Origin: a virus
Lineage: Duplodnaviria > Caudoviricetes
IMG/VR virus record: IMGVR_UViG_3300031949_000044
Coordinates: 1 to 56,859 of that record
Strand: one strand, 5' to 3'
Length of the DNA stretch: 56,859 nt
This document shows positions 1-40,390 of this stretch, piece after piece; position 1 is the stretch's first letter, and each line of letters starts with the position of its first letter. The notes under the pieces were generated by a model. The model was given only the letters and a program-made list of their open reading frames with translations, was not told the origin of the DNA and made no database searches. The position numbers were made by a program, and so were the translations under genes.

Positions 1-99
1 AGCCAGGTCTACGAGGACTGGGCCGAATGCCCATCTGCCTCAAGATGATCCTAGACGCCTGCGAGGCGCACTACATCATGGGGGAGCGGGTGACTCAAG

Positions 100-309
100 T
101 TGACGCGACGGGCTAAGACCACGCTGATCCTGGCCGCCGTCTTCTTCGCTACCGTCCTGGTCATGTCCATGGCTGGCTGTCGCCCAGTCGATGGGCCTGG
201 TCCCCGGACGCCTGGACCTACCGGCAAGACGATCGTCCCCTGGGCTCCCAGTGCCACCAGGACACCAGGCCACGCTGGCCCAGCGAGTACTGGGGACACG
301 AGTCCATGA
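100..309 (+). CDS. Small putative lipoprotein/secreted protein
   Basis: Basic N-terminus, hydrophobic stretch, MAGC lipobox-like motif, Pro/Thr-rich tail; ATGA overlap with the next ORF. Confidence 0.5.
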   Translation: MTRRAKTTLILAAVFFATVLVMSMAGCRPVDGPGPRTPGPTGKTIVPWAPSATRTPGHAGPASTGDTSP

Positions 310-395
310 AACGGATCCCGTTCCCAGTACTCTTGATCCTGGTCCTGGTGGCCGGGTTTATGATCATGACATCGCTGGGATACTGCACCGGATAG
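306..395 (+). CDS. 29-aa single-TM peptide
   Basis: MKRIPFPVLLILVLVAGFMIMTSLGYCTG; start overlaps the upstream stop (ATGA). Confidence 0.45.
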   Translation: MKRIPFPVLLILVLVAGFMIMTSLGYCTG

Positions 396-407
396 CGATA
401 TCCCGGG

Positions 408-1357
408 CCGACTTGACTTCCCTTGCCTGATCCAGGCAGCCCTGTTCCGACTACCCCGATCCCTCCTAGCTCAACTCACGCCGACTTCCCTTGCCCATCC
501 CTGCCTCTGCGGTGCCAGCCAATCCCACCCGACAATCTCACCCGTACCGCCCCGACACTTCACACGCCGACATGCCTTGCCTTACCCCATCTCCTCGTTA
601 CGACGTTCCTCTCCACCCACCCCCTTCCCCGGTTCCGACGAACCCACCCCCTCCTCGCCAGATCGTTACGACATTCCCACCCGCGCCTGCACTTCCCCAG
701 ATCGACAAGCCTCTCCATCTCCGCTCGGTGCCGACCGCTACGACATCCCAAGTCCCGTCAAAACCCGCCTATTCGACATCCCGACTCTCGACAACCCTCG
801 TCTCCGCGACTGGCCAAACTAGTCCACTCCAACCCTGTTCGACCAACCTGTTCCCACCTTTACGACGAACCCGGTCCCGCCTGGTCTTCACCAACCCCTA
901 CGACTTCCTTCTGTGACAAGCCGGACCTACATCTCCCGTCCCAATACGACAGACCTTTCCCTGCCCAACCAACCGACATGCCTACCCACGCCATGATCGT
1001 GACCGCCCATTACGACAATCCCCGCCCACTCCTCACACCCCTGTACGACAGGCCATGCCACGAAAAGCCCCCGTCACCTCAGCCCGCTACGACTACCCGT
1101 TTCACGTCCCCGCACCCCTGTACGACGTGCCTATCCATGCCATGACCGCCCCCACTCTGTACGACAAGCCTTACCCGTCCTGGCCGACCCCGTGCGACAA
1201 GCCGATCCAGGTCAAACTCCACTCCGTCCGCACGACAATCCAGCCCGTTACGTGCTCCTATCATGCCGTTACGACAAACCTAGCCATCATCGATTCAGAT
1301 CAATCCGTTACGACAAGCCCCCCCGGTCTTCTGCACGCCGGCCCAGATGACAATCCA
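408..1357 (+). repeat. Pentamer-periodic array A (about 28 units, CGAC + (NNNCC/NNNNC)x~6); candidate guide-RNA array
   Basis: Example: gac-atgcc-ttgcc-ttacc-ccatc-tcctc-gttac-gac and gac-gaacc-caccc-cctcc-tcgcc-agatc-gttac-gac; the overlapping ORFs are low-complexity Pro/Arg/Thr. Confidence 0.85.
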
Positions 1358-1360
1358 CAG

Positions 1361-1397
1361 AGGGTAGCTCCTGGTCGCCACGATCAGGAGCTACCCT
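1361..1397 (+). terminator. Strong hairpin at the 3' end of array A
   Basis: agggtagctcctg / caggagctaccct perfect 13-bp inverted repeat, extendable by gtcg/cgat. Confidence 0.7.
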
Positions 1398-1403
1398 GTT
1401 GCC

Positions 1404-1679
1404 ATGACCGAGGAACGTTGCCCGTGTGAGGACCTGACCGACGCTGAGCTGCTGGCGTTCGCTGGCGAGGGACGGATCCCCAAGGCTCTCGGTCAGTACT
1501 GGACCCGCGGCGAGGGTGCCGCGAAGATCGGTTGGGGTACCGATGGGGCATTCAAGCGGTGCACCAGACTCCTCCGGGCGAAAGTCAAGGACATGGGCAT
1601 CGACATCGAGGGTCTCTGTGCTAACCTTGAAAAGCGGGCAACCGGACACTGGCCTGCCGAAAAGGTGATCGATAGCTAG
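1404..1679 (+). CDS. Conserved actinophage hypothetical protein
   Basis: YWTRGEGAAKIGWGT...RC...GLCANL...ATGHWP motif pattern recalled from actinophage proteins; AGGAG upstream. Confidence 0.7.
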   Translation: MTEERCPCEDLTDAELLAFAGEGRIPKALGQYWTRGEGAAKIGWGTDGAFKRCTRLLRAKVKDMGIDIEGLCANLEKRATGHWPAEKVIDS

Positions 1680-1686
1680 GAGAGGC

Positions 1687-2268
1687 ATGCGTACATGTGG
1701 ATGGTGCGGGCAGTCCATCGACCACATGGCAAAGATTGCCAAATACTGCTGCCTTCAACATAAAAAGAACGCAGCCTCTAAGCGACACCGAGAACGTAAC
1801 CCTGGTTACTATGCCCAGTACAGTCGATCTCCGACCAGGCTGGCGTACAACGAGGCCAACCTGGACCGCAGGCGCGAACAGTCTCGGCTCAGGATGCGAG
1901 TCCTGCGAACGGAGAAGCCAGAAGCAACGGCCCAGTACGCACGCGACTGGTGGCAGGCCAACAAAAATAAGCACTACGAATACAATCGTCGTCGCAGGGC
2001 CATGAAACTGGCTGGCGGCACTGGAGTCAGTGATACTGACTGACTGAAACTGTTGCGCAGACATAATTTTACATGCGCGTACTGTCCCCGGCGAGGCAAG
2101 TTGACCATGGATCATGTGGTTCCATTGACTCGCGGCGGTCGACACAGCATCGGTAACGTGTTGCCAGCCTGCACCCCCTGCAACAGCGGGAAGGGCGCCT
2201 CTCTCCTTGTTGAATGGAGACGGCGAGCGACCGGCGAATGGCCGGCGGAAAAGGGCGTAGAGTCTTAG
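1687..2268 (+). pseudogene. HNH endonuclease interrupted by an in-frame TGA (2041-2043)
   Basis: ORFs 1687-2043 and 2053-2268 are in the same frame; CAYC...TMDHVVPLTRGGRHSIGNVLPACTPCNSGK is an HNH motif; the stop lies where a Trp (TGG) would be plausible. Confidence 0.8.
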
Positions 2269-2279
2269 GCAGATCCACG

Positions 2280-2317
2280 GCAAACGACCCCAGTCACTGG
2301 AGACTGGGGTCGTTTGC
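2280..2317. terminator. Perfect 16-bp hairpin between convergent units; 3' end of array B
   Basis: gcaaacgaccccagtc-actgga-gactggggtcgtttgc. Confidence 0.8.
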
Positions 2318-2321
2318 GTCG

Positions 2322-3307
2322 TGGACTGTCGCAGAGATCTGGGATGCCAGGGTTAGTCGGCATGTCGTAGTGGCGTGGTTCGTTGGTGATACGGCTTGTC
2401 GTATAGGACGGGTTGGGCCTTGAGGGAACTGGGTCGTCGGAACGAATTGGTGAATTATGCATTGGGTCGTCGGAACGAATTGGTCAGTTAGCGCGGAAGC
2501 GGTACGAGCTGTCGAGGGGGGAGGTTCGAATTGGCTTGGATGGTCGAAATGGAGAGGCATGCCGGGAAAGGGGTTGGCTTGTCACCTGCGCGGAGGTGGC
2601 GCGGAAAGGCTCGTCAGTCGGGGCGTAGAGAGTTGGCTCGGCTCGTCGGATAGGGGCGATAGAGGTGCGTGCCGTGGTGTCGGTCAGTATTGGAGCGGAA
2701 TGATCCGTGAAGTCGTAGGGACCTGGAGTGGCTTGCGCCTGGCAAGTCGAACGGTTGGCCTAGGCGGAGGAGGCAAGGAGCGTCGAATGGGGCGGATGAG
2801 GCGAGGGGCGGTTTGTCGGGTGGATTCGACCAGTCTAGGTCGGGTGAGTCGGGGGGTGTGGTTCGAGCCGGGGAGTCGGCGCGGTTGGGGTATGCGCGGA
2901 GGTGGATGGGTGCGTCGGGCAGGACGGTACTGGGCCGGCACGATCAGGTATGTCGGTCTGGTGAGACTAGATCCGGCCGGGTGCGTCGGATGAGGTTGGG
3001 CTGGCGAAGACGCGGCCAGGTAAGTCGGATTGGGTGGGCCTGGAACGAGTCAGGCACGTCAAGAGGAGTGGCCGGGACGGGTCAGGTGTGTCGGTGAGAA
3101 GCGGAGCGTCCAGATGAGGCTTGGCCTGTCATATGGATTGGCACGAGAGTGGGTGGGGTGGGGAGTCGAATCGGGATGAGGTGAGCCAGGGCCGGGAAGT
3201 CGGCAAGGACATGGCCAGTGATGGTTGGGGAAGTCGCAGTGGCGAGGATCGCGAGGAGCTGGTCAAGGGTAGTCGGTTTGAGACGGGGAGAAAGGCTGGG
3301 GAAGTCG
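2322..3307 (-). repeat. Pentamer-periodic array B (about 30 units), downstream of the RAMP gene
   Basis: On the + strand, GGNNN pentamers with GG-NNN-GTCG delimiters roughly every 33-39 nt; same grammar as array A in reverse complement. Confidence 0.85.
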
Positions 3308-3308
3308 A

Positions 3309-3340
3309 CGCCGGGCTCCAGGTCGCCCCAGAGCCCGGCG
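3309..3340 (-). other. Hairpin between the RAMP stop codon and the start of array B
   Basis: cgccgggctc / gagcccggcg perfect 10-bp stem. Confidence 0.6.
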
Positions 3341-3347
3341 CAGTGAC

Positions 3348-4190
3348 TCAGGCGGCCTGAGGTACCACCGCCGCCGCCTTCTTGGTAGCGGCCTTCTTAG
3401 CCGGCGGCTTGACCACGAGCAGCTCCGCGCCAGCTTCCTTGGGCTCGTTGCGGGTCTGCTCGAAGTGGATGACCCGGTAGCGGCCGAAGCCCTGCGAACG
3501 CGAGGCACCGATCCCTTGCTGCTGACCGGTGACCCAGATCGTCCTCCATGCGGGGCCGGTGAACTCGTAGTCGCAGATCAGGTTCATCACGATGACAGCG
3601 CCATCGACGTACTCCTCGTAGGAGATCGAGGAACCGAACCGGGTCTGGACGAACCGCTGCGCAATCCCCGTGACCTCGGTGACCGGGATGATCCGGGACT
3701 TTGCGTTATTCGGGTCACTGAGCTGCCCGAGGTACAACTCATCTTCCTCCACGAAGCAGTGCTCCGGGAAGAAGTTGGTGATCCATTTCTTGGTCTCACC
3801 CCAGCCGGTGGCCTTCAGGTTCCCGGCCGCCACCGCGACGGACACGGCTTCCTTCAGCGCGGCCTTGGCCTGACGGCCCTCGATGTACCGGATCCCGGTG
3901 ATGGGATCGTGCCGGAAGCCGTTGATGTTGCTTTTCCTGATGACTTCCTCGACGGCGTCTTCCTTGGTGACGACCTCACCGGCCTCGGTCCGGGTGATTA
4001 GGACGCGGGCGACCTCGTCCTGAAGCAACTGGTTGTCATCCATCCCCATCTTTTTGCGCAACCAGCCTTCCACCACGCGGTCGTTGTTGGGGACGCCCCC
4101 TGCAATACGATCGCAGAGCAGGTGTACCTCGTAGCCGAACCGGAAGACCTTGGCCTCCTCTTCGGCGAACACGGACTGAATGTAACTCAT
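3348..4190 (-). CDS. Stand-alone RAMP (Cas7/Csm3-like RRM-fold) protein
   Basis: YIEGRQAKAALKEA resembles the RAMP YIPGSSLKGALR motif; C-terminal glycine loop GIGASRSQGFGRY; strong RBS AAAGGAGA; Lys/Ala-rich tail. Confidence 0.8.
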   Translation of the reverse strand: MSYIQSVFAEEEAKVFRFGYEVHLLCDRIAGGVPNNDRVVEGWLRKKMGMDDNQLLQDEVARVLITRTEAGEVVTKEDAVEEVIRKSNINGFRHDPITGIRYIEGRQAKAALKEAVSVAVAAGNLKATGWGETKKWITNFFPEHCFVEEDELYLGQLSDPNNAKSRIIPVTEVTGIAQRFVQTRFGSSISYEEYVDGAVIVMNLICDYEFTGPAWRTIWVTGQQQGIGASRSQGFGRYRVIHFEQTRNEPKEAGAELLVVKPPAKKAATKKAAAVVPQAA

Positions 4191-4225
4191 GTATTTCTCC
4201 TTTCAATTGGTGTTTCATTGTTGAC

Positions 4226-4931
4226 TGGATAGTCGTAGCGGTATGGGTGAGTGTGGACCTGGGACGGCAAGTCGTAGTGGGACTGGGATGTCTGGACCAG
4301 ACAGGGGTAGTCGTAGTGGTCCGGTGAGGACCGACGGAGCGTTGGCCTGGGGAGTCGGTCGGGGACGTAAGGGGTGGTACGCCGCGTCGATCTGGGTCGT
4401 GTCGTTCCAGGGCCGGACAGTCGGTAGAGGGAAGGGGAGTGCTCTGATCACGTCGTCGTGCCGGGTGGTCGGGTGTGGAGACGGGGGTCGGACGGTCTCG
4501 GTCCGTCGAGCTGGGGGGCATGGATAGGTCAGGCCAGACGAGTCGAAGCGGCTAGATTCGGGTTGGGTGGCTCGGGGTCGTCGTATTGGGGAGATCGGTG
4601 CGGGCAAGGGGTGTCGGTATGGCTGGACTCGCGGTGCACGGGCAAGGGAAGTCGGTCGGGGTAGGAGCAACCTGGGCAGGCGTGTCGTAACGGCTAGGAG
4701 GTCGTGACGCGGGATGAGAAGTCGGAGTAGGCGGGCAGTAAGGGGTCGTCGGATGGGGCGGGCCAGAGATGATGCAGGAAAGTCGCAGTGAGGCGGTCGG
4801 TCATGCATTGGTCAGTCGGGCGGACGTGAGAAGGCCGGGGTTGGCTTGTCGACGCGAAGTGGCCAGGGAGGAAGCGACTAGGCAAGTCGTACGGTTCGAT
4901 GCATCTGGGGTTGACGGGGTGGGGTTAGTCG
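4226..4931 (-). repeat. Pentamer-periodic array C (about 20 delimiters), immediately upstream of the RAMP gene
   Basis: GGNNN-GTCG delimiters mostly 32-34 or 37-39 nt apart; the first overlaps the stop codon of 4925-5455 and the last lies about 30 nt before the RAMP RBS. Confidence 0.85.
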
Positions 4932-5455
4932 TCCGTGCCGGTGAACTGGGCACGCATGGCTTGGATCTGAGCTTCGCTGAACACATCTCCTACAGTCCGG
5001 TCCCCCACTCTTCTGGAGAGTTCCCGGTAGAACGCGGCGAGGAAGCCGTTCTCTCGTGCCCGGTCCTGGTAGCGATCTGCCAGGAAACCCAGGTCTGTCC
5101 TGTTCATGTTCCGGAGTTTCTTCCGGTTATTCTCCCGGTCCACCGCGTGCATGGTCCCGAGAAATGATCTGAGTGGTTCCGTCTTGCCGGCCACGAAGTC
5201 ATCCAGAACGTCGTTGAAGTCCTGTTTCTTCTCTTCTATCACGCCCCTGGCGCGACGGCTGCGGTCCCGATAGTTGATCGCATCATGGAGTAGGTCCGCC
5301 GCTCGGACCTGAAGCCACCCGTTCAGTAGGTCCGGATCCTGAGCCAGTAGCTCAGAGACGATATCCTGCGCCACGATTCGGGATTGATATGTGTCAACCC
5401 CGGTGTGCCGTTCGATGACCAGATCCATCTCCCTGGTGAAATCCCTCTCTCCCAT
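4925..5455 (-). CDS. Helical hypothetical protein, candidate partner of the RAMP
   Basis: 176-aa ORF with GGAGG RBS, same strand and directly 5' of array C and the RAMP gene. Confidence 0.75.
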   Translation of the reverse strand: MGERDFTREMDLVIERHTGVDTYQSRIVAQDIVSELLAQDPDLLNGWLQVRAADLLHDAINYRDRSRRARGVIEEKKQDFNDVLDDFVAGKTEPLRSFLGTMHAVDRENNRKKLRNMNRTDLGFLADRYQDRARENGFLAAFYRELSRRVGDRTVGDVFSEAQIQAMRAQFTGTDD

Positions 5456-5528
5456 GCGTTCCTCCCTTCATTCACGTGTCAAGACAATGGCGTGCATGGA
5501 TTCCATAACGCCTCCCATCAGGAGAAGC

Positions 5529-5562
5529 GGGGTCCCGAGAGTAGGCAACCCCCCGGGACCCC
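5529..5562 (-). terminator. GC-rich hairpin after the ParB-like gene
   Basis: ggggtcccg...cgggacccc; extends with G-U pairs on the minus strand. Confidence 0.55.
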
Positions 5563-5574
5563 CTCCCCCTGAAT

Positions 5575-6435
5575 CTACTTCTCGGTCCAGGGATCCAGCT
5601 TGTTGGACCGAAGGTCCTTGTTATAGATGTCGACCAGGACCATGGCGACCGCACCGGCTTTGGTCAAACGCATGGCGTCGCGGAGCGTGGTCGCCTTGTT
5701 GATCACCTCGCGTGGGCCGCCAGGGACGGCGGTCAGCTTCTTGATCATGTGGCTGCCGTTGACCTTGTCGCCCCTGAACAGCAGGAGCTTCCCCATCCCT
5801 GCCAGGAGCGAGTCGTTCAGGGCGCCGTAGCGGTTACCCCACGCCCCGGAGAGCAGGGATACGGAGGTTTCCGCGAGGTCCACGTCCAGGGCGAACAGTC
5901 TCTCCAGGGTCTTTACGGCTCCGAAATTGCCGTCCGCGATGCCGCCACGCAGGCGCCACTCGTGCTTGACGAGGACGTTGAACATCTTTATTGCCAGCGG
6001 ATCCCGTTCGATAAGCTTGACCCGGAAGATGTCGAGCGGTTGCGGGTGCTTGGTGTTGTTCAGTAGGCGGAATAGCACTGCCTCTTCGGCCGGCGACAGG
6101 TCCTCAAACGCCTTGACCTGCACTTCCATGGACCCCTTGCCCAGAAGGGCTAGTGCGGCCTGCCTGTGCTGCCCGTCGAGGGCGTAGTACTTCCCATCCT
6201 CGCGCCGTGACGCGGTGAGCACGCCGATGGCCTCGGGCCGGTAGTCACCAGCGATGCTGTTGACCCGCTCCACGCTCAGGCGCCTCTGGAGCTTCGGGTC
6301 GATCTTCAGCTCCTGTACCGGCAGCTCGATCATGAAATACGATCGAACATTAGGCGGTGCCGCTAGGGCCTTCTCTACGGCCAGGTCGGCGGCCTCCTGA
6401 GCCTCAGCGTCCAGGCCGATCTTCTCTTCTGTCAC
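5575..6435 (-). CDS. ParB/Srx-like N-terminal (DGQHR) domain protein, DUF6551-like
   Basis: LKIDPKLQR...IGVLTASRR...YALDGQHR motifs; GTG start overlaps the upstream stop and has a GGAGG RBS. Confidence 0.75.
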   Translation of the reverse strand: MTEEKIGLDAEAQEAADLAVEKALAAPPNVRSYFMIELPVQELKIDPKLQRRLSVERVNSIAGDYRPEAIGVLTASRREDGKYYALDGQHRQAALALLGKGSMEVQVKAFEDLSPAEEAVLFRLLNNTKHPQPLDIFRVKLIERDPLAIKMFNVLVKHEWRLRGGIADGNFGAVKTLERLFALDVDLAETSVSLLSGAWGNRYGALNDSLLAGMGKLLLFRGDKVNGSHMIKKLTAVPGGPREVINKATTLRDAMRLTKAGAVAMVLVDIYNKDLRSNKLDPWTEK

Positions 6436-7001
6436 GGTCTCTTGCCCTCCCATCCTTTGAGCACTTGCGGTCTGCCTTCTCTTATCTTGCGGTTGTACCA
6501 CCCGGAGAGTTTCTGGCGCCCAGTCCAGATCTTCTTCGCCAGGGTGGCTACTTCCTCATCACTGATCTGCTCTGGAATGTGTTTCTCCAGCTTTTCCAGG
6601 ATGAGCTGGATCTGATCCAAGTGATGTCCCACTTGATTCATCGCCGATCTGTATTGCGCGGGATCCGTCGTCCCGTTCTGGGAATACAGAAGCCCAATTT
6701 TCGTGCGCAATGTGTCAGGTCCGAATTTGCCGGCCTCGAACTCTTTGAACAGTTCCCTTGCCTCTTTGGTGTGGTCGCCGTTCTCTAAATACGCGACCCG
6801 GTACGATTTCTGTAACCGGTTTAACTCGTACCGAGACATGCCGTGCTCTCGGCAGAACAGATCCTGGAAGTTCCCTCGACCGAACCGGGGTTTCTTGACA
6901 TGTTCAGCCAGGGCTTTGTGGTATTCGATAAACAACGCTTCCCAAGATGGGAATCCTGCTGGACGCGTATCCCTGTTTGGGTCGGCGCGTCGTCTACTCA
7001 T
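6432..7001 (-). CDS. Hypothetical protein (helical, possibly DNA-binding)
   Basis: 189-aa ORF translationally coupled to both neighbours. Confidence 0.7.
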   Translation of the reverse strand: MSRRRADPNRDTRPAGFPSWEALFIEYHKALAEHVKKPRFGRGNFQDLFCREHGMSRYELNRLQKSYRVAYLENGDHTKEARELFKEFEAGKFGPDTLRTKIGLLYSQNGTTDPAQYRSAMNQVGHHLDQIQLILEKLEKHIPEQISDEEVATLAKKIWTGRQKLSGWYNRKIREGRPQVLKGWEGKRP

Positions 7002-7213
7002 AGGCGAGCCCTAGCCGCTTCCCAGCGCTTTACCTCATCCATGCGAATGCGCCACGAGGCCCGTTTCCGGTCGCCGTCCGCCTGCTTCTTGGCGTTCAGG
7101 TTCTCCGCTGCCAGCTCCCCGCGACTGATCATGTTGTAGACAGCCTGCTTGGACACATTCCAGCGGCTACACAGGAACGCCACACCGACCAGGGTCGGTT
7201 CCTCTTTGTCCAT
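6998..7213 (-). CDS. Small HTH (excisionase/MerR-like) DNA-binding protein
   Basis: WNVSKQAVYNMISRGELAA...WRIRMDEV pattern; GGAGG RBS. Confidence 0.8.
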   Translation of the reverse strand: MDKEEPTLVGVAFLCSRWNVSKQAVYNMISRGELAAENLNAKKQADGDRKRASWRIRMDEVKRWEAARARL

Positions 7214-7237
7214 GTCCCTCCTCCCTTTGATCTTTGA

Positions 7238-7266
7238 ACTATATCCTACATAGCCTCTGGAGACAA
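7238..7266 (-). promoter_or_regulatory. Sigma70/HrdB-type promoter for the HTH-ParB-RAMP unit
   Basis: TTGTCT-N17-TATAGT on the minus strand. Confidence 0.6.
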
Positions 7267-9870
7267 CTACCCGGTCATATGTCCGAAGAACCCAGTTTGT
7301 CCGTTAAGCGCTATACCTACCCAGTAGACCTGACCGCCGCGCTTCGTCTCCGCGATCCCCGTGCTAGCTACCCGCTTGTTGAACTTTCGCTGCCCGAGTG
7401 CGATGAACCTGTTGGCCTGGCACCAGTTCTCGTACCTCTGGAACAGGTGTGCCTTGATGACCTCCGCGTCAGGCGTGGGAACGATCTGCTCTTGGGCGAA
7501 GGCAGTCTCCAGGAACTGGAGTGCGGTGTCGTTCTCCACCCGGTACTTCTCGCCCGCGTCCGTGACAGCCTGCGGTGCGCTGACTCCTTGCCCTCGGAAC
7601 TTGGCTAGACCCTCTAGGAGCCAGTTCAGGATCCCATCCGCCTCGGCCAGGAGCTTGTCCAAGATCTCGTGATCCTCGGTCGCGCTACCCTCGAACTTCT
7701 GGTTGAACTCAATGACCTTGATGCGTCCCCAGGCCGCCGGGTCATCCGGGTTGATCTTCGGGTTGTGGTTCGTGGCCATCCACATCACGGCCTGAGGGGT
7801 CCAAGACTGTGGCGCCTCGTACAGACCACGAGAAGTGATCGAGTCCTGGCCAGTGAGGCGCTTGATCAGTTCCTCGTCCAGCTTCGAGTCCTCGGCCGAC
7901 TCAGACGTTGCCACGAACCGCTTTCCGCGCAACGCGTGAAGCTCCACAGTGGACGTGTTGTCACCCTTCTTGGCTCGGAACAATGATGCCGCTGCCGTGC
8001 CTCCGTAGTCACCGAACACCTGGGTCAGGGTCTCGACCAGCTTGGACTTACCGGTTCCGGGAGGTCCGGACAGTAGAGCCATGGCTCGCCGGTTCGGCTT
8101 ACCCAGCAAGGAGTAGCCGGCCATCCGTTGCAGGAAGTCGCGAGTCTCGGGGTCCGGGATGACCTCCTCAAGGAACTGGAGCCAGCGAGGAGCGGTCGCG
8201 GCCGGTCGATATGTCGCACCGAAGGTCTTCGAGAGCATGTACCTGGGGTCGTGAGCCAGGAGTTCGCCACTCTCCAGGTTCAGGATTCCGTTGCGTACGT
8301 TCAGATACTTCGGGTCCACGTCGAAGTCATGGGCGTGCGCCTCGACTCCGGGCTCAGCCCGGTACATGGCGACCGTGCCCTCGACCTTGCTGTTGGCGTT
8401 CGAGGTGCTGGCCCATTTACTCAGTGCCGTGCCCTCCTCGCCCAAGAGCCCGGCTTGCTTTTTGGTGATCTTGTTCATTCGCTTGACGGCGGCCTTGATC
8501 GGGTCCTGGTTCAGCGCGAACCGCCAGGCAGAGCCTTCCCAGACGGCCCACTTTTTCATGTCCGCGCAGTATCGGTAACCGGTCGGGTACATGGCTACCA
8601 TGCGTTCCGCGTTGCCACCGTCACTGTGTTCGTACATGGAGAGATCAGGTACCGCGACCTGTTGCGGGACAACGGAATCCTCGGGTACACCAATCAGGAT
8701 CGGTGGGCACCAAGCGGCCAGCTCAACCGGCTCCGCGTCCATCATGACGGTGCGAGCCTCGCCGAAACCCTTCTCTCGCAAGGATTTGGCAGCCGCACTC
8801 ATGTCACCGGCGTGGTGGTATGCCGCGTACACATACTGTTTCGTGTGTTCCTTCTGTGCTTCAAGCTCAAGGACGTCGGTACTGAATATCCAGATCCTGT
8901 CCCGGTCCGCGGCGTGCCCGGTGGATGCACTGTGCCCATCCCTGCGGTCCTTGCCGGGTCGTACCCAGTACCTGGTCTCCCCGATCTGGTGGGAGAAGGC
9001 CCAGCCCAGCGGGATCAGGATGTCGGCCCAGTCCGTCTTCGCCTCGTAGTCGTCCAGGGGAGAGAGACCAGACAGAGGGGAGGGGGTGTTCCGGGGAGCT
9101 GGTCGTGGTGCCGGCTTCGGGATGACGTCCTTGGCAGCCAAGGTCGCTGACTCGGTCAGGTCGGCCATCGTATACATGGTGCCGGAGTTCTCGGTGAGGA
9201 TCTTGCACGGTCGCTCCATCCCCGCCTTCCGGTTCACCGTGCCAGGGATCCGGAGTACCCGGGCCAGGTCGTGGATGCCGGTCCCGTACTCGAAGCCGGC
9301 GCGCTCGAAGGCGTGGCCGATGATCCGATGCCACTGCTCAGATCGGGCCTGGAGTTCGGGCAGCCCTTCCTCGGTGACCCGGAGCGGATCCTTGAGTAGC
9401 CACCACGGATAGAGTCCGCCACCTGAGTGGATCCAGAGGGTTGGCTCGGGGAGCCCGGAGCTGGCCAGGATGATCTTCGCCTGCTCGACGGTCTCCGGAA
9501 GATCCAGTTTCTTGTGCCGGTGTGGCTTGGGACAATCGTCGGTACAAACCTCGTGCTTGTGGCCAGGACCACGCAGATCGATGTCGGCCCAGAAGCCGGG
9601 GAACGTCAGCGTGTCCTTGACCCCGCCTCGCTCACCCTTGTCCAGGCGCCTGGAGACCGTGGTGGCCCGGACGTAGATACCCTCGGTACCGCCGTTGTGC
9701 AGGGACTCTATGTAGTACAGGGCCTTGGAGACCCAGTCGGTCTTACTCAAGTCAATAGTTGCCCCGGCAAAGTTCCCCACGGAACAGATGTGCAGGAACC
9801 CTTCCGAGTCCCCGTGGAGCTGCTCAAGCCAGACCTGCGCCTCGTCCCGATCAAACCCGGCTTGTGGCAT
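7267..9870 (-). CDS. DNA primase-helicase (RepB/AEP-like primase fused to a D5/P4-type SF3 helicase)
   Basis: WADID, HSGGG..PWW and RVLRIPGTVN primase motifs; Walker A GPPGTGKS; IKRLTGQD and ATNHNP SF3 motifs. Confidence 0.9.
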   Translation of the reverse strand: MPQAGFDRDEAQVWLEQLHGDSEGFLHICSVGNFAGATIDLSKTDWVSKALYYIESLHNGGTEGIYVRATTVSRRLDKGERGGVKDTLTFPGFWADIDLRGPGHKHEVCTDDCPKPHRHKKLDLPETVEQAKIILASSGLPEPTLWIHSGGGLYPWWLLKDPLRVTEEGLPELQARSEQWHRIIGHAFERAGFEYGTGIHDLARVLRIPGTVNRKAGMERPCKILTENSGTMYTMADLTESATLAAKDVIPKPAPRPAPRNTPSPLSGLSPLDDYEAKTDWADILIPLGWAFSHQIGETRYWVRPGKDRRDGHSASTGHAADRDRIWIFSTDVLELEAQKEHTKQYVYAAYHHAGDMSAAAKSLREKGFGEARTVMMDAEPVELAAWCPPILIGVPEDSVVPQQVAVPDLSMYEHSDGGNAERMVAMYPTGYRYCADMKKWAVWEGSAWRFALNQDPIKAAVKRMNKITKKQAGLLGEEGTALSKWASTSNANSKVEGTVAMYRAEPGVEAHAHDFDVDPKYLNVRNGILNLESGELLAHDPRYMLSKTFGATYRPAATAPRWLQFLEEVIPDPETRDFLQRMAGYSLLGKPNRRAMALLSGPPGTGKSKLVETLTQVFGDYGGTAAASLFRAKKGDNTSTVELHALRGKRFVATSESAEDSKLDEELIKRLTGQDSITSRGLYEAPQSWTPQAVMWMATNHNPKINPDDPAAWGRIKVIEFNQKFEGSATEDHEILDKLLAEADGILNWLLEGLAKFRGQGVSAPQAVTDAGEKYRVENDTALQFLETAFAQEQIVPTPDAEVIKAHLFQRYENWCQANRFIALGQRKFNKRVASTGIAETKRGGQVYWVGIALNGQTGFFGHMTG

Positions 9871-9904
9871 ATGGCTTGTTCCTCCACAACATATAGCAAT
9901 GCAC

Positions 9905-9934
9905 TTGACCGCCCCCCGGGGGAGGGGTTACGCT
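9905..9934 (+). promoter_or_regulatory. Promoter carrying the conserved CCCCCGGGGGAGGGG spacer motif, antisense to the early operon
   Basis: TTGACC-N18-TACGCT. Confidence 0.6.
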
Positions 9935-10101
9935 GTCACCACACAACAGCGATGCACAGGACGGTCCCTTTTGCCGGGGGGCCGTCCTCGCTGCTGTTCA
10001 GCGACGTGGGTGTGAGCTTACGCCACGATCCCGGCTTCCGGTACGATCGGGGTGAAGGTGATCCTGCCCAGATCGATCTTCTCTTCTCCTCCCAGAAGAC
10101 G

Positions 10102-10138
10102 GCGACGGCTCCCGGTACACGTTCCCGGGAGCCGTTGC
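10102..10138. terminator. Hairpin/terminator
   Basis: gcgacggctcccgg / ccgggagccgttgc. Confidence 0.6.
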
Positions 10139-10150
10139 TATGTAAGGGAT

Positions 10151-10336
10151 CTAGGCTGTTTCTCGTCGGATGAGTTTAAGCAGCTCCAGGCCAATTTCGC
10201 CGGCTCGACGGTCGTTGAAGATACCGGCCGGAGTCTCGCTCCAGCACATCGAGGCAGCACCAAGAGCCTGATACACGGCGCTTTCGATAGGAATGGTGCC
10301 GTCATGTTCTGGGGTGAAATGGAACTCAGAATCCAT
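10151..10336 (-). CDS. Small conserved phage hypothetical protein
   Basis: MDSEF...AVYQALGAASMCW; start overlaps the end of the upstream gene. Confidence 0.6.
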   Translation of the reverse strand: MDSEFHFTPEHDGTIPIESAVYQALGAASMCWSETPAGIFNDRRAGEIGLELLKLIRRETA

Positions 10337-11237
10337 ACTGCTGCCGTTCCTGTTCCTGGTTGTACGGCTGCTGGACCTGCTGGCGAGCCAGGTCGTTGTT
10401 CTGATGCTGCATGGCCAGCCGCTCCAGCACGGAACCCTGAGCCGGCGGCTGCGGCGGCATGGGTGGCTGCTGGTACTGCGGTTGTGCCTGCTGAGTGGGC
10501 TGCTGAGCCCAGGCCGGCGGTGGCCCCTGCTCGTGGTGGGCGGGCTGCTGTGCCGGCTGCTGCTGATACTGCGGACGAGGGCCATCGCCGTACGGCCCGG
10601 TGCCAGGGTGACGTGCCGCGTACGGATTCATCTGACCCTCGTGGACGGGGCCGCCATTCCATCCGACTGGCTGCTGCTGGAACTGCGGCTGGGATTGTGA
10701 CTGCTGCCACTGTTGGGCCTGCTGTGGCTGTCCCTGCCACTGTTGCGCGGGCATGGAGCCCTGCGGCCAGCCCTCGTGCTGCGGCTGTTGGTTCGGCACC
10801 CACGGCTCCGGGTCCGGCGGGGCATCCGAGCGAACGAACTCGGGATTGGCGGCCATCCATGCGCCGCCCAATTCGACGGCATTAGCATCCCCGGACAGGT
10901 CCGTGATCACGTAGCTGCGGCCACCGTAGGAGTTCGCCACCTGGGTGAAGATGGCCAGTCGCGGGTCCGTGCCGACCAGGGACTTCAAGGTCTTGATCAA
11001 GCTGCCGGTGAACAGCCACACATTTCGGTACAGAACCGGAGTCCCGCCCATCAGCGGCCGGAGATCCACGATATCGCAGATCACCGGGTCAGCCAGTCTC
11101 CCCGTCCGCTGTGTCTGGGAGGTTCCCACGTTCCGCTTGTGGTCGTTGACCCAGATGATCAGGGGCCTGCCCACCAGGTCCTGAGCCCCGATCTTGGGGC
11201 CGCTGTTGTCCTGAATTGTCCCGAATGGTTGTGTCAT
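10326..11237 (-). CDS. ssDNA-binding-like protein with Gln/Pro-rich C-terminal tail
   Basis: About 140-aa globular domain followed by a disordered Q/P tail; located between the exonuclease and primase genes. Confidence 0.55.
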   Translation of the reverse strand: MTQPFGTIQDNSGPKIGAQDLVGRPLIIWVNDHKRNVGTSQTQRTGRLADPVICDIVDLRPLMGGTPVLYRNVWLFTGSLIKTLKSLVGTDPRLAIFTQVANSYGGRSYVITDLSGDANAVELGGAWMAANPEFVRSDAPPDPEPWVPNQQPQHEGWPQGSMPAQQWQGQPQQAQQWQQSQSQPQFQQQPVGWNGGPVHEGQMNPYAARHPGTGPYGDGPRPQYQQQPAQQPAHHEQGPPPAWAQQPTQQAQPQYQQPPMPPQPPAQGSVLERLAMQHQNNDLARQQVQQPYNQEQERQQYGF

Positions 11238-11466
11238 CTGCCTGTTCCTCTTCTACTACTTCGATCTGTCCCGCTTGCCGCCGGTCGTAGTCCGCCTGAT
11301 CGCCACGGGTCAGGTGATACCAGCCACAGTACCGGCACCGGTACGGTCTGCCGGGCTCCGGCAACTTGCGACCATACTCCGATGCCAGGTTGTACGAACC
11401 GAAAGATCCTTTCCCCTTGCGTCCTCGCCCGTGTGGGCAACGGGGACCGAACTTCGTATGCGCCAT
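11089..11466 (-). CDS. Small zinc-finger-like protein
   Basis: PYRCRYCGWYHLT motif; the 3' end overlaps the next gene, so the end is uncertain. Confidence 0.5.
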   Translation of the reverse strand: MAHTKFGPRCPHGRGRKGKGSFGSYNLASEYGRKLPEPGRPYRCRYCGWYHLTRGDQADYDRRQAGQIEVVEEEQADDTTIRDNSGQQRPQDRGSGPGGQAPDHLGQRPQAERGNLPDTADGETG

Positions 11467-11494
11467 CCTACGTACCCATATTCATTCTCCTTTG

Positions 11495-11888
11495 TGGATA
11501 GTCGCCAGGATCGGGCCGAGCCGCCAAGGTGATGGGCAGTCGCGTGGGTGGTGGGGGCTGTTCAGGCACGTCTCGTCGGTACTCTTGGTGCGCACTGGAA
11601 CGGAATGTCGGGAGGGCCGGGATGCACGTTTCGGGTAGTCGATGTGATGTGTCTTGCCGAGAAGCGGCGGGGATTGTCGTGCGGGCGGGCGGTCCGGGCG
11701 AGGGACGTCGGTTGTGTGTCGTGTGTCTAGTGTCGAAGCGGTGAGTCGTTAGGTGTCGGGGAGGGTTGTGGGTGGGTAGTCGTTAGTGGGTGGGCCGAAG
11801 ACGCGGTGGGTAGTCGTACCGGAGTGGCCGGTGGTGGTCGGGCAAGTCGCAGGGAGGCGGGAGGGAAAGGAGGGAGGCAGGGTAGTCG
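11495..11888 (-). repeat. Pentamer-periodic array D (about 11 units), directly after the Cas4-like gene
   Basis: GGNNN-GTCG delimiters about 31-39 nt apart; on the minus strand the first CGAC follows the TGA stop with no gap; ends gac-tatcc-a before an RBS. Confidence 0.85.
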
Positions 11889-12746
11889 TCAGCGACCCGG
11901 GCAGCCTGAAGCGTCAGGTCCCAGATCTATATCTCGGGGTTGAAAAAATGGGCAGTATGCACAGGATTGACCACTTGGGGTGGCTTCGATATCATCCCAA
12001 CGCTGAGGCTGGTTCATGATGTCGAGTTCCATCAGTCTACCAGCCAACCGATACATTCTGTCCAGGGCGCCTTGAGCGATTGCCCTGTCGTACGGGTACG
12101 TGAAGACCATCGCATCCGACAGCCAGCCGGCACGGGGCACGAAGTACAGGCTGACCTCGTCCACCGGGATACCGGAGTTCTCGTACCCCATCCCGTAGAG
12201 CTGAAGCTGGGTCTTGTACCCGGGCGGCACCTCTCCCTTCTTCAGCTTGGCGTGCAGCGTGGACCCATAGGTCTTGACGTCGACTACCCGTTTCTTGGAG
12301 ATCTGGTACAGGTCGGCGTGCCCATGGATCATCGGGTCAACCTGGACGGTCTGCTCGGTCAACCAGTCCTGCCCCATCCCCGCCCGCTGGTACGCCAGGA
12401 CGGCGCCCTCGATCCAGGCATGGACGGCAGTGCCCACAATCGCCGCCCATGGATCCATGGCCATGTTGACCTTGTCCAGGCCGGCGATCTTCATGCCTAG
12501 TTTCCGGTCGCAGGGATCGCCAAGCTCGGAAGGGCCTGGAGGGGCTTGCATGGACCGCTCGGAGTGTTCGTCCGCCCACAGGATGATCTCTGCCAGCTCG
12601 TGCTTCAGCGGGTCCGCGCCAGGGATAGCACCGAACATCGCACCAGACATAGCACTCCGATCGCATGTGGGATGTAGCTCCACGCCCTGGTCCAGCCAAA
12701 ACTTGGCCAACCGGACGCCACACACGTTACAGAGAGCCCCTGACAT
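11889..12746 (-). CDS. Cas4-family PD-(D/E)XK exonuclease
   Basis: PSELGDPCDR, HADL..VVDVKT, QLQLY and CAYCPF...CP (1+3 Cys pattern). Confidence 0.85.
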   Translation of the reverse strand: MSGALCNVCGVRLAKFWLDQGVELHPTCDRSAMSGAMFGAIPGADPLKHELAEIILWADEHSERSMQAPPGPSELGDPCDRKLGMKIAGLDKVNMAMDPWAAIVGTAVHAWIEGAVLAYQRAGMGQDWLTEQTVQVDPMIHGHADLYQISKKRVVDVKTYGSTLHAKLKKGEVPPGYKTQLQLYGMGYENSGIPVDEVSLYFVPRAGWLSDAMVFTYPYDRAIAQGALDRMYRLAGRLMELDIMNQPQRWDDIEATPSGQSCAYCPFFQPRDIDLGPDASGCPGR

Positions 12747-12934
12747 TACCGATCTCGCCGACCGTGCTGAAGATCCTTATGCTCTTCGCACAGTGCTGTC
12801 TGAAACGGGCGCAGAGGACCGTCGTACAACTTGGCCGGCTTCCGGCACATGAGGATCAGGAGACCAGGTCCCGAGTCATCCACGCCGGTGCTTGCCTCAC
12901 AGGTATATTGATCATCACGTGGAGACACTGGCAC
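12746..12934 (-). CDS. Small hypothetical protein
   Basis: 62-aa Cys-containing ORF coupled to the Cas4-like gene start. Confidence 0.5.
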   Translation of the reverse strand: MPVSPRDDQYTCEASTGVDDSGPGLLILMCRKPAKLYDGPLRPFQTALCEEHKDLQHGRRDR

Positions 12935-13012
12935 CCCTAACGGTTACGGTCTCTGATCATCTTGATCAACACCACCAGGATCACGATAGTGAACGCGATA
13001 CCGATGATCGAG

Positions 13013-38022: not shown

Positions 38023-38589
38023 ATGTCGCCGTACCGGGATCCGGTGGCGAGTCTGTCCCGCGACCCCATCGTGTTCGATTTGCGAGGGAAGAGGTTCACC
38101 GTCCCGGCGATGGCCGCGTCCAACTGGTTGACCCTCTTGCTCAAGGATCGTCTATCGCTCACGGACATCATCCCTGGCCTGCTGTCCGAGGAAGAACAGG
38201 ATGAGGTGAACCTGGGCGTCATTGACGGCAGCGTCACGATCGAAGAAATAACCACCATCGCCGAGGATGTGCTATCAGTAGCCTCTGGCCGGGACTGGTG
38301 GGTGACCGTTCGACTGGTCACCATCGCCAAGATGAACTGGGACATCATCGGTGGAGAGCTGGGCAAACTCGGCTTGGACTGGACGGTCACGCCTCTCGGC
38401 ACCTGGTTGGATGTGGCCTATTCGGTGATGCGGACGGCGATCGCTGAAGGCGGGGACAGCAAGACAGCGCAGAGCCGGTTGACCAAATTCGTCAACGATC
38501 TCGAACGGTCACCGGCCGACCCGAACGAGGAACTGGACGAGGAAGCCGAGGCCGAAGCGTTCATGCGGGCCATGCAGATGGCTTCCTAG
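38023..38589 (+). CDS. Second tail assembly chaperone
   Basis: Immediately before the tape measure gene. Confidence 0.55.
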   Translation: MSPYRDPVASLSRDPIVFDLRGKRFTVPAMAASNWLTLLLKDRLSLTDIIPGLLSEEEQDEVNLGVIDGSVTIEEITTIAEDVLSVASGRDWWVTVRLVTIAKMNWDIIGGELGKLGLDWTVTPLGTWLDVAYSVMRTAIAEGGDSKTAQSRLTKFVNDLERSPADPNEELDEEAEAEAFMRAMQMAS

Positions 38590-38629
38590 TAGGATGAGCC
38601 GGTAAACCCTGCGTGGGAGAGGTGACCTG

Positions 38630-40390
38630 GTGGCGCTCGGAGCCGCGTTCATTACCATCCACGCCGACACCGCGCCCTTTGCCAAGGAACTGGTCAAGGA
38701 AGTCAAGGCCATTCTCAAGGCCACCGAGTCATTGACCAAGGGTGATGCAGACCGACTCGGGCAACGGATCTCCGATGGCATCGGCGGGGGGATCAGGAGA
38801 AACTCCCACCGGGTCCGCAACTCAGTCAAGGATGCCCTGGACGTCGACAGGGGTGGGTTCCTTTCCAACTCCCTGAGGCACGGGTTCGGCAATATGGGCG
38901 TCAAGGCCGGAAGCGCCTTCGTCCAGGGTTTCAGCAAGATCGGTAATCTTCTGGCGTCCGGCCTGGAAAACGGGGTGAAGGCGGCCGGTAACCTGTTCGG
39001 ATCGATCTTCAACGTCTCGGCCAGCTCGCTGGCAGCCGCCTCGGTCATGGTCGCCTTGCTGATATTCACCGGCACGGTGGTTCTACCTGTGGTCATCTCA
39101 GGTGTCATCGCTCTGGCTGGCGCTCTCTCCAACCTGCTTGGGCTCTTCGCCATCATCCCGGCTGCTTTGGGGGTGGTCTTGGCCATCATCCTGCCTCTCG
39201 TAGCGGCGTTCCAGGGATTCGGTGAGGCCATTGGTGCAGTGATCAGCAAGGATCCAAAGAAGATCGCCGAGGCGATGAAGGGCCTGACTCCAGCGGCCCG
39301 GGGGGTCATCAAGGAACTCCAGAAGCTGATGCCGCTGTTTTCTCAGCTTGCCGACATCGCTCAGGAGGCGTTCTTCAAGCCCTTGGCCGGTGATCTGACA
39401 GCGCTGGTCAAGCGGGCCAGCCTGCCACTGCTGCATGGGTTCCAGATTGTCGGAGCTGCTGCCGGCGACTTGGTCAGCGGCATCCTGGCGGCGCTCTCCA
39501 AGCCCGAGATGGTCATCTTCTTCGATGACATGTTCAACGCGGCAGCAGAGGCGCTGACCATCCTGAAGCAGCCGATCATCGACCTGATCACGGCCTTCGC
39601 AGCCATGGCTCAGGCGTCGATGCCGGCGTTCCTGAAGCTGACCGAAGGACTCGGCGCTTTCCTGACCAAATTCTCCAACTGGATCACCCAGAACATCGAG
39701 GACGGATCCTTCCAGGCCTTCCTGGACAAGGCGCTGCTGACTCTCAAGGACATCGGCGACCTGATCGGCGCGGTCATCGAACTGTTCAAGGTCATGTTCC
39801 AGGGCACGGAGGAGGGTGGCCGGACATTCCTGCAACTGATCACCGCAGCTATCAGGGATTTGACCGCCTTCTTCAAGTCGCCGGACGGGCAACGAGCGCT
39901 CCAGGCCATGATCGACCTGGCCGTGGTCTTCGGTGTGGCGCTGGCTGGCGTGATTCTGGTCGCCGGGAAGCTGGCCGGTCAGTTGGAATTTGTGGCAGAG
40001 GTCCTCAGGACCATCATCAGGCTGCTGACTGGAATCGACATTCGAAAGCTGAACGTCGTCGGCCAGTCAGGTGGCACCATCGCCAAGGTTAGTCAGGGAC
40101 TGGGGATCCGTGCCGCCGCCTCCGGTGCCATTGTCACCCATCCGGAACTGATGCAGGTGGGTGAGGGCGGCGCACCCGAGGTCATCATCCCGTTGAACGA
40201 CAGTAACCGTGCCCAGCAACTGGCCGACCAGTCAGGGCTCTCCTCCATGCTCCGTGGCAACAGTGGGAACATCACGTTGATCGCCTATATTGGTGGGCGG
40301 CAGGTGGAGGCGTTCGTGGAAGAGAAGATTGGCTCGGCCTTCGAGTCGCAATCCCGCGCCCTGTTCTACGGTGCCCGGAGCGGTGTCTGA
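38630..40390 (+). CDS. Tape measure protein
   Basis: LGAAFITIHADT N-terminus, long Ala/Leu-rich helical body, GEGGAPEVIIPL C-terminus. Confidence 0.85.
   Translation: MALGAAFITIHADTAPFAKELVKEVKAILKATESLTKGDADRLGQRISDGIGGGIRRNSHRVRNSVKDALDVDRGGFLSNSLRHGFGNMGVKAGSAFVQGFSKIGNLLASGLENGVKAAGNLFGSIFNVSASSLAAASVMVALLIFTGTVVLPVVISGVIALAGALSNLLGLFAIIPAALGVVLAIILPLVAAFQGFGEAIGAVISKDPKKIAEAMKGLTPAARGVIKELQKLMPLFSQLADIAQEAFFKPLAGDLTALVKRASLPLLHGFQIVGAAAGDLVSGILAALSKPEMVIFFDDMFNAAAEALTILKQPIIDLITAFAAMAQASMPAFLKLTEGLGAFLTKFSNWITQNIEDGSFQAFLDKALLTLKDIGDLIGAVIELFKVMFQGTEEGGRTFLQLITAAIRDLTAFFKSPDGQRALQAMIDLAVVFGVALAGVILVAGKLAGQLEFVAEVLRTIIRLLTGIDIRKLNVVGQSGGTIAKVSQGLGIRAAASGAIVTHPELMQVGEGGAPEVIIPLNDSNRAQQLADQSGLSSMLRGNSGNITLIAYIGGRQVEAFVEEKIGSAFESQSRALFYGARSGV

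Follow-up and report, generated by a model that had tools for sequence, protein, structure and literature searches.

The virus genome IMGVR_UViG_3300031949_000044 (Caudoviricetes), assembled as one contig of 56,859 bases and analysed here over its whole length (the window), carries four C-rich arrays of short units between its genes. What do these arrays specify, and which protein reads them? The original prediction, made from the letters of the DNA, regarded the arrays as one dispersed system whose functional RNA is most likely the C-rich strand. A pentanucleotide code, a RAMP gene lying between the second and third arrays (B and C), the helical partner of this gene and the VIPR preprints of 2026 were all absent from that prediction. 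VIPR systems, found mostly in phages, combine, according to the accessible text of one of these preprints, three parts: Vipr, a minimal RAMP with an RRM core, a glycine-rich loop and a thumb; an accessory gene, vap; and pentanucleotide-repeat guide RNAs (vrRNAs) encoded in the flanking intergenic DNA (10.64898/2026.04.26.720920). We conclude that the four arrays are very probably vrRNA arrays of a divergent VIPR system, with the 280-amino-acid (aa) RAMP as Vipr homologue and a 176-aa protein as vap-like accessory.

The arrays were found at the positions that had been predicted for them:

Array A: 409-1357, C-rich on the + strand; 31 CGAC within 409-1349 and a terminal TGACAATCCA (shuffle mean 6.2, maximum 15).
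Array B: 2322-3328, C-rich on the - strand; 31 CGAC, end CGACAGTCCA (shuffle mean 7.3, maximum 15).
Array C: 4226-4934, C-rich on the - strand; 31 CGAC, end CGACTATCCA (shuffle mean 5.3, maximum 12).
Array D: 11495-11891, C-rich on the - strand; 16 CGAC, end CGACTATCCA (shuffle mean 3.3, maximum 8).

Counts were compared with 500 mononucleotide shuffles of the C-rich strand of each array. CGAC was 4-6-fold above shuffle expectation, and GTCG occurred on the same strand 0, 2, 3 and 0 times in A, B, C and D, respectively. The C-rich strand of the arrays contains 45-47% C and 16-19% G. The four arrays follow one common grammar. Together they occupy 3.06 kb, or 5.4% of the 56.9-kb genome, and comprise about 67 units of at least 27 nucleotides (nt). 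A per-kb scan of the entire window for CGAC and GTCG gave no fifth region of this kind; Tandem Repeats Finder detected none of the four arrays, and an Rfam search of window positions 1-13000 (E<=1) returned two chance-level rows only and no family match.

The autocorrelation of C at lag 5 was 0.19, 0.22, 0.14 and 0.15 in arrays A to D, compared with 0.01 and -0.02 in two coding controls. The maxima in the arrays fell at lags 5, 10 and 15, and in addition at 33 and 38, while the coding controls peaked at lag 3; a 3-nt periodicity was looked for in the arrays and was absent. The lag peaks therefore identify the arrays as non-coding. Long open reading frames (ORFs) do span them (423-1145 on the + strand and others), but a coding function was rejected on the periodicity and on the unit lengths, which are not multiples of 3.

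In 111 aligned CGAC contexts, C was enriched at +3, +7/8, +12/13, +18, +23 and +28, as well as at -5 and -10. Among 119 canonical 33-nt units pooled from the window and its relatives, C was present at positions 3, 8, 13, 18, 23, 28 and 33 in 88-94%; the base preceding each lattice C was mostly a pyrimidine (Y), and the remaining three positions were near random and not G-poor. The unit consists of GAC followed by six pentamers NN nYC, where NN is a pair of variable bases and nYC the fixed trinucleotide, giving 33 nt, or 38 nt when there are seven pentamers. CGAC is the final C of one fixed trinucleotide joined to GAC: one NN is missing at this point, so that two fixed trinucleotides abut and the lattice is shifted by 3. 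A G-quadruplex on the G-rich strand was ruled out, as low-GC relatives have GT instead of GG.

The 107 intervals from CGAC to CGAC in the window included 38 of four lengths (33 nt, 11; 34 nt, 9; 38 nt, 7; 39 nt, 11), the others being shorter or longer. About half of the full-length units of the window, those of 34 or 39 nt, thus have one base over the lattice prediction, and mostly end in TA before the next CGAC. Such TACGAC unit ends were seen in arrays A and C, for instance at 595-604, 663-672 and 1007-1016. In the pooled relatives, units of 33 and 38 nt outnumber those of 34 and 39 nt.

Arrays B, C and D end in CGAC(A/T)(G/A)TCCA. The end motif GACNNTCCA occurs in only 5 of the 109 CGAC units of the arrays, and its presence at three or four array ends is therefore not due to chance. 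A terminal motif in all four arrays had been proposed; it is exact in B, C and D, whereas array A terminates in TGACAATCCA (1348-1357), which means that the last delimiter of this array is degenerate. The predicted 16-mer common to array A (481-496) and, as reverse complement, array C (4640-4655) was recovered; arrays A and D share a 15-mer, B and C a 14-mer, and all three sequences begin at CGAC. A hand estimate for the 16-mer across all cross-array unit pairs, based on position frequencies, was about 0.01, a modest excess. A common delimiter, the 5-nt lattice, the end motif and some unit starts bear out the view that the dispersed arrays are one system.

Two genes flank array C:

vipr-like gene: 3348-4190, - strand; 280 aa, predicted RAMP/Cas7-Csm3 fold, G-loop GIGASRSQGFGRY, Lys/Ala-rich C-terminal tail.
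vap-like accessory gene: 4925-5455, - strand; 176 aa, predicted all-helical; array C separates it from the vipr-like gene.

No Pfam, PHROG or NCBIfam family was assigned to the vipr-like protein. It has at least 666 homologues, nearly all of them unnamed metagenomic or viral proteins, and the G-loop GIGASRSQG(F/Y)GRY, located near the C-terminus, is invariant among 35 homologues. The AlphaFold model (pLDDT 83.9) was compared with known structures. Foldseek gave Csm3 as the best match (6ifl_F, E 7.7e-7), followed by type VII Cas7 and Cmr4, with 96 matches at E<=0.001. VIA-align likewise placed Csm3 first (9g9a_D, Z 11.6, root-mean-square deviation 3.8, 162 aligned; 6ae2_B, Z 10.9), ahead of type VII Cas7 (8yhd_A, Z 10.7) and then Cmr4, gRAMP and Csf2; the best 20 rows for the model contained RAMPs only, with Z from 11.6 to 7.9. 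As judged from the model, the 280-aa protein is a RAMP of the Cas7/Csm3 type encoded outside a CRISPR locus. Among 17 different ORFs scanned in 1404-12746, no Cas family was found except the PHROG of a Cas4-like exonuclease, and no Nop domain.

The Lys/Ala/Pro-rich tail of the protein (PAKKAATKKAA-like; window 3348-3440, residues ~250-280) was observed only in the closest relatives, P0002-P0006, and a few others. Tails of this composition are frequent on actinobacterial DNA-binding proteins; a DNA-binding role and a host among the Actinobacteria would be in keeping with it.

The association of the RAMP gene with arrays was examined in relatives. An exact-peptide scan of IMG/VR with the single vipr-like protein gave nothing; a search of IMG/VR with an alignment profile of the RAMP identified 60 homologue loci with 28-47% identity. 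Arrays were called in these loci from at least 8 CGAC, a skew below -0.2 and a lag-5 signal. At least one array was present in 54 of the 60 loci, and several of the other six are cut at a contig end beside the gene. C-richness was on the sense strand of vipr for 67 of the 73 arrays, 20 of which are directly upstream and 12 directly downstream of the vipr-like gene. Phages of 44% GC showed the same grammar, with RAC (R, purine) replacing nYC.

The cultured Microcystis phage Mae-JY09 (PP395641.1) is the only GenBank phage with a homologue (31.6% identity). It carries 33-nt CGAC units directly 3' of the RAMP gene, at its right end (L061 8735-9130; PP395641.1 ~38460-38860). Every gene of this region is annotated as a hypothetical protein, and its GC content is very high by the standard of Microcystis phages.

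Clustering of all ORFs of 61 loci revealed one further conserved neighbour, a helical protein of 176-190 aa, in 41 of the 61. Its gene is nearly always located directly upstream of the vipr-like gene and on the same strand. For the member encoded in the window (model pLDDT 93.1), no PDB analogue was found (best Foldseek E 1.2; best VIA Z 5.6). Pfam gave no match for this protein and scattered single matches among 29 members of the family, and hhalign detected no likeness to vap1 of Escherichia phage SUSP1 (E 0.18).

The arrays change faster than the genes beside them in strains related to the window. A scan of metagenomes for close relatives yielded one 2-kb locus only. In strains X2, X3 and X4, which come from three other metagenomes of three studies, the genes are covered with point differences, many of them 3 nt apart, while the contigs break in the arrays or skip whole units, and the loose ends are other array-like sequence. 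The following deletions relative to the window were mapped:

Array A, 740 to 774: 33 nt skipped in X2, X3 and X4.
Array A, 1029 to 1107: 77 nt (two units) skipped in X4.
Array B, 3163 to 3198 (34 nt) and 2326 to 2363 (36 nt): skipped in X4.

The 33-nt skip from 740 to 774 is the unit that starts at 741. CGAC, for which a role as processing site had been suggested, is in this respect a unit boundary, since the indels between strains remove whole units. Two other loci, L056 and L057, have vipr genes identical at 807 of 840 nt and mosaic arrays of about 36 and 13 units. Locus L073, whose vipr-like protein has 81% aa identity, carries an array at the place of array C, with one short unit common to both. 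Turnover by whole units is the behaviour of guide arrays under conflict.

In VIPR, the NN bases are described as pairing with double-stranded DNA with a one-base skip, usually at the codon wobble position (accessible text of 10.64898/2026.04.26.720920). To look for the same code, 318 unique in-phase guides were collected over all loci, their NN were read at +4,+5 (+5k), and both strands of these loci (2.07 Mb) were searched, with arrays masked and with 0 to 3 bases skipped between pairs. Perfect matches were as follows:

7-NN guides: 0, 14, 1 and 1 at skips 0, 1, 2 and 3; three order-shuffles at skip 1, sum 1.
8-NN guides: 0, 4, 0 and 0 at skips 0, 1, 2 and 3; three order-shuffles at skip 1, sum 2.
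6-NN guides: 12, 14, 12 and 20 at skips 0, 1, 2 and 3; shuffle sum 41, chance level.
5-NN guides: 69, 83, 92 and 90 at skips 0, 1, 2 and 3; shuffle sum 244, chance level.

All 14 seven-NN sites at skip 1 derive from one guide, the first unit 3' of the RAMP gene in locus L034. This guide spells CAx GGx TTx GGx CGx TAx GAx, the codons for Q-G-F-G-R-Y-E of the G-loop, and matches in frame in the RAMP genes of 14 loci. The four eight-NN sites derive from one guide of locus L019, whose NN run antisense to the codons of K-V-A-E-G-W-L; in a search restricted to the gene, this guide had 8 perfect sites and 3 sites with one mismatch. The skipped base is the codon wobble base for both guides, and no motif of the vipr gene is more conserved than the two that they match. 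For these two guides of related loci, the one-base-skip (NNx) code applies. Guides aimed at other VIPR systems are reported in the available parts of the published VIPR work, which report no self-targeting.

The findings can be arranged into the following mechanism. The arrays would be transcribed together with their neighbours, most likely as C-rich sense RNA, and B and C might belong to a single unit (vap / C / vipr / B) that opens at a promoter 5' of vap and closes at the hairpin at 2283-2312. The RNA would be a pentamer lattice of variable NN and a fixed trinucleotide, nYC or, in low-GC relatives, RAC. In the solved type II complex, one protomer covers each repeat, G1 being read by H17 and D177, G2 by R138 and W178, and Y3 lying in a pocket with R179 (10.64898/2026.04.26.720927, as far as its text is available). 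By analogy, one Vipr protomer could bind each pentamer, hiding the fixed trinucleotide and presenting NN. The NN missing after every 6 or 7 pentamers (nYC/GAC) would act as a phase break at which one filament, or guide, stops and its successor begins, so that head-to-tail guides are 33 or 38 nt long, and the CGAC at this break may double as a cleavage site. The 6-7 NN of each guide would then pair with double-stranded DNA as NNx NNx and silence genes of competing phages, vipr among them.

A more specific form of this proposal has, in our view, about an even chance of being correct. It holds that the window belongs to a distinct C-type VIPR lineage, in which a RAMP with a rebuilt G-loop reads nYC or RAC. 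Dozens of guides of 6-7 repeats, each of one helical turn (about 70 in 3 kb), would lie head to tail in the operon mRNA, delimited by one dropped NN with neither repeat, tail nor ribozyme, and some guides would be aimed at the conserved, catalytic-site-like motifs of vipr, in anti-VIPR warfare or self-regulation.

Several observations weigh against the assignment to VIPR. Sequence homology to published Vipr is weak: the profile of the vipr-like family (A1) aligned by hhalign with that of 23 homologues of SUSP1 agp039 (A3) at E 0.0059 over 128 colinear columns, at a reported probability of 6.3%, in a stretch that joins the helix-1 motif and the G-loop; against the single SUSP1 sequence the E-value was 0.074, and a search of the SUSP1 genome with the A1 hidden Markov model found nothing. 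Published vrRNAs have 9-16 YNNGG pentamers with a 3' tail (10.64898/2026.04.26.720920, text in part), forming an RNA of about 100 nt whose tail is conserved and structured, in contrast to the 6-7 repeats without a tail found here; on this count the system of the window is not type II. A target could be demonstrated for only 2 of 345 in-phase guides, neither of them from the window. The 22 in-phase guides of the window, searched against their own genome, gave no better result at skip 1 than at skips 0, 2 and 3, and against the 2-Mb locus set only chance-level matches of 5-6 NN. A scan of IMG/VR with one 18-base NNx pattern (48-nt unit at 482) gave a single match, inside a gene of a low-GC phage, which is about the chance expectation. 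The L034 guide matches the vipr gene of its own phage at 14 of 14 NN bases. This self-match is to G-loop codons about 50 nt upstream of the guide (L034 10661-10681 and 10713-10750), and the other 13 loci are matched too; it could represent autoregulation or a cost. Finally, the runs that contain window DNA are soil and sediment DNA metagenomes, and the RNA-level steps are inferred from sequence.

The choice of RNA strand also has to be weighed. The C-rich strand had been preferred because array A lies among + ORFs and the others follow - genes, and these relations were confirmed (B after 3348-4190, C after 4925-5455, D after 11889-12746). The target search is blind to strand because the reverse complement has identical NN positions. 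The sense, C-rich strand is moderately favoured over the G-rich one. The following features belong to the local layout:

Strong hairpin: 1361-1395, + strand; separates array A from the ATG of ORF 1404-1679; terminator-like on the C-rich strand in the flank scan.
Two-way terminator-like hairpin: 2283-2312, both strands; separates the HNH ORF (+) from the end of array B; stem followed by TTTGC on each strand.
Hairpin: 3314-3345, - strand; between the vipr-like gene and array B.
Hairpin and TTGACA: 5529-5562 and 5482-5477, - strand; upstream of the vap-like gene; candidate terminator and promoter, read from the sequence.

Arrays C and D each take up all the sequence between one stop codon and the ribosome binding site of the following - gene. 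The first CGAC of array C overlaps the final codons of the vap-like gene, and its last unit is 36 nt ahead of the vipr-like ATG; array D starts where the Cas4-like exonuclease ORF (11889-12746) has its stop codon, and stops immediately 5' of the ribosome binding site of ORF 11089-11466. Array B stops at the two-way hairpin that it shares with the converging HNH gene. The hairpin and TTGACA upstream of the vap-like gene are kept in L073, and region 5477-5562 could, from its sequence, open a transcription unit vap / array C / vipr / array B; scans for sigma-70 promoters and terminators were at chance level in the window and in L057.

Alternatively, the same VIPR-type system could use the G-rich strand as guide RNA; it would be transcribed in the antisense direction of vap, vipr and the genes around them, and each unit would be GTC and n repeats of GRn NN. 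We regard this as possible, though doubtful. In its favour, the consensuses in the accessible preprint text are all written with G as the fixed base (GGY/NN, NNNGG, YNNNG, NNNNG; 10.64898/2026.04.26.720920), and the G-rich strand fits NNNGG at high-GC loci and YNNNG, or G-T-Y, at low-GC loci. In SUSP1 the G-rich tracts are the RNA, and in the low-GC phages of loci L056 and L057 a T-run follows, on the G-rich strand, the hairpin that separates vipr from the array. Against it, the SUSP1 repeats are on the vipr strand, and 67 of the 73 arrays studied here would be antisense to tightly flanking genes. The distance from array end to vipr start codon is 20-45 nt and leaves no room for a divergent promoter.

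The six inverted arrays among the 73 are all upstream of the vipr-like gene. They have a spacer of about 120 nt in L042, L050 and L051, and a similar one in L047, and the spacers of L042 and L047 share a TGnTAnnnT-like, promoter-like element directed into the C-rich strand. The spacer conserved between L042 (2569-2686) and L047 (9870-9995) is a candidate divergent promoter region, with a small hairpin (TCCGG..CCGGA) and a pair of opposed TGnTAnnnT-like elements. Furthermore, D177 and W178, which in the solved complex recognise G1 and G2, respectively, are replaced in the A1/A3 alignment, D177 by a near-invariant Ala and W178 by Ser, Asn or Thr, while R179 is kept. A strong terminator lies on the C-rich strand 3' of the array in L034. 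The terminator scan of array flanks showed no clear asymmetry, with 4 on the C-rich strand and 5 on the G-rich strand after the arrays, and 3 and 8, respectively, before them.

A function of the arrays as scaffold or decoy is improbable. They would then be a C-rich RNA sponge for a rival Vipr, for host Rho or for Cas proteins, or a Rho-dependent timing device in the operon. C-rich, G-poor untranslated RNA is the classic loading substrate of Rho, and the target searches found none for the window guides. Satellite-encoded vrRNAs that redirect the VIPR of a phage have also been described (10.64898/2026.10.15.759431, text in part). On the other hand, the variable positions are not depleted in G and appear rich in information, and two guides, from related loci, fit conserved coding motifs with the skipped bases falling exactly on the wobble positions. 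Fast unit turnover with the lattice kept fits specificity-bearing guides better than a bulk sponge.

The replication module of the window has the following members:

ParB-like protein: 5575-6501.
D5_N/primase-helicase: 7267-9870, - strand.
Cas4-like exonuclease (PHROG match): 11889-12746, - strand.

The arrays lie within this module, and GTC is the recognition core of T7-type primases, yet a DNA-level element (origin iterons, primase or partition sites, or packaging signals, read by the D5-type primase-helicase or the ParB-like protein) is most unlikely, given that across the 60 loci the arrays accompany the RAMP gene, that clustering of the neighbouring ORFs yielded neither a primase nor a ParB group that was conserved, and that a 5-nt lattice with variable dinucleotides, unit turnover and NNx coding matches is foreign to an origin.

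The D5-type primase-helicase (7267-9870) has 26-29% identity to primases of cluster K-like Mycobacterium phages, and the replication genes of the window show a distant likeness to those of actinobacteriophages. A nucleotide search of GenBank phages with window positions 1-12000 gave no match. Two further features were seen near the arrays. Sequence TGACTGACTGA at 2038-2048 is a stop in three frames and lies between ORF 1687-2043 (Cys-rich, basic, no family) and the HNH-domain ORF 2053-2268, which look, from their sequences, like a split HNH endonuclease gene or two small genes. The 303-aa ORF 10326-11237 (- strand), between the gene downstream of array D and the primase region, has a long Gln/Pro/Gly-rich second half and no family match.

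VIPR was proposed in 2026 as the ancestor of the RAMP effectors of CRISPR and as a very small programmable DNA binder. If the interpretation of the arrays as divergent VIPR guides is true, a lineage in which the 5-nt lattice and the NNx code persist with a changed trinucleotide and changed readers would reveal which parts of the code are essential and would widen the design space for tools, and no guide-array format known would be more compact than head-to-tail guides of 33 or 38 nt set apart by the loss of two bases. Arrays this large and fast-changing would constitute a readable record of phage-phage conflict in soil. Guides on the conserved motifs of vipr itself point to conflict between VIPR systems, or to autoregulation, beyond the phages of Enterobacteria. 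Mae-JY09, as a cultured carrier, makes strand and processing accessible to experiment.

Among known systems, class 1 CRISPR-Cas (Csm3, Cmr4 and Cas7 on CRISPR RNA) provides the best structural match and resembles the window in having one protomer per short RNA segment, with periodically displaced bases, and short variable units that turn over whole. It differs in its period of 6 and in its repeats of about 24-40 nt accompanied by cas genes (Cas5, Cas6, Cas10/Cas8, Cas1-2), compared with a period of 5, no repeat of 20 nt or more and discontinuous guide information here, where CGAC and the 5-nt lattice are the sole repeated elements. TIGR-Tas systems, like the window, have phage-borne tandem arrays of very short guides with split information. 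Their period, however, is about 18/36 nt, the edges of their repeats are conserved and their effector has a Nop domain; the window has a 5-nt lattice (units of 33/38 nt), a RAMP effector and, among the scanned ORFs, no Nop domain. In the available text of a language-model survey, TIGR-Tas is cited as the class with an 18-nt period (10.64898/2026.10.21.760802).

The same survey lists 21 clusters, with non-GGY cores (such as GAC/NN, CAC/NN, WGT/NN and TGH/NN) beside Vipr-like folds. The main VIPR preprint, in its accessible text, describes seven types with six different vap families, allows the repeats NNNGG, YNNNG and NNNNG and a 'related consensus', reports small-RNA sequencing for types II, III and V only, and mentions head-to-tail 'staggered' arrays (fig. 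S18; 10.64898/2026.04.26.720920). As far as the text and legends of the preprints allow a comparison, these non-canonical or staggered arrays are like those of the window in having a period-5 lattice with a non-GGY core beside a Vipr-like fold, and guides placed head to tail, each beginning where the previous one stops.

The closest comparison is with VIPR type II, represented by Escherichia phage SUSP1 and a prophage of P. fulva. Common to both are a small RAMP that stands alone and has, besides the G-loop, a helical bundle as an insertion, a phage locus of two genes with arrays flanking the genes on both sides, non-coding pentanucleotide tandem repeats with two hypervariable bases each, an NNx match to coding DNA with wobble skip, and guides against other VIPR systems. 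The core is GGY in type II and nYC here (RAC in low-GC relatives) when written on the vipr sense strand, the other strand reading GRn/NN, and the G-reading D177 and W178 of type II are the residues replaced here. Vipr of the SUSP1 family has about 190 aa compared with 222-280 aa in the family of the vipr-like protein, and the accessory protein is unlike vap1. Finally, the guides of the window system follow one another directly, head to tail, with a missing NN (nYC/GAC) as the boundary, and there are about 30 units per array and four arrays in the genome.

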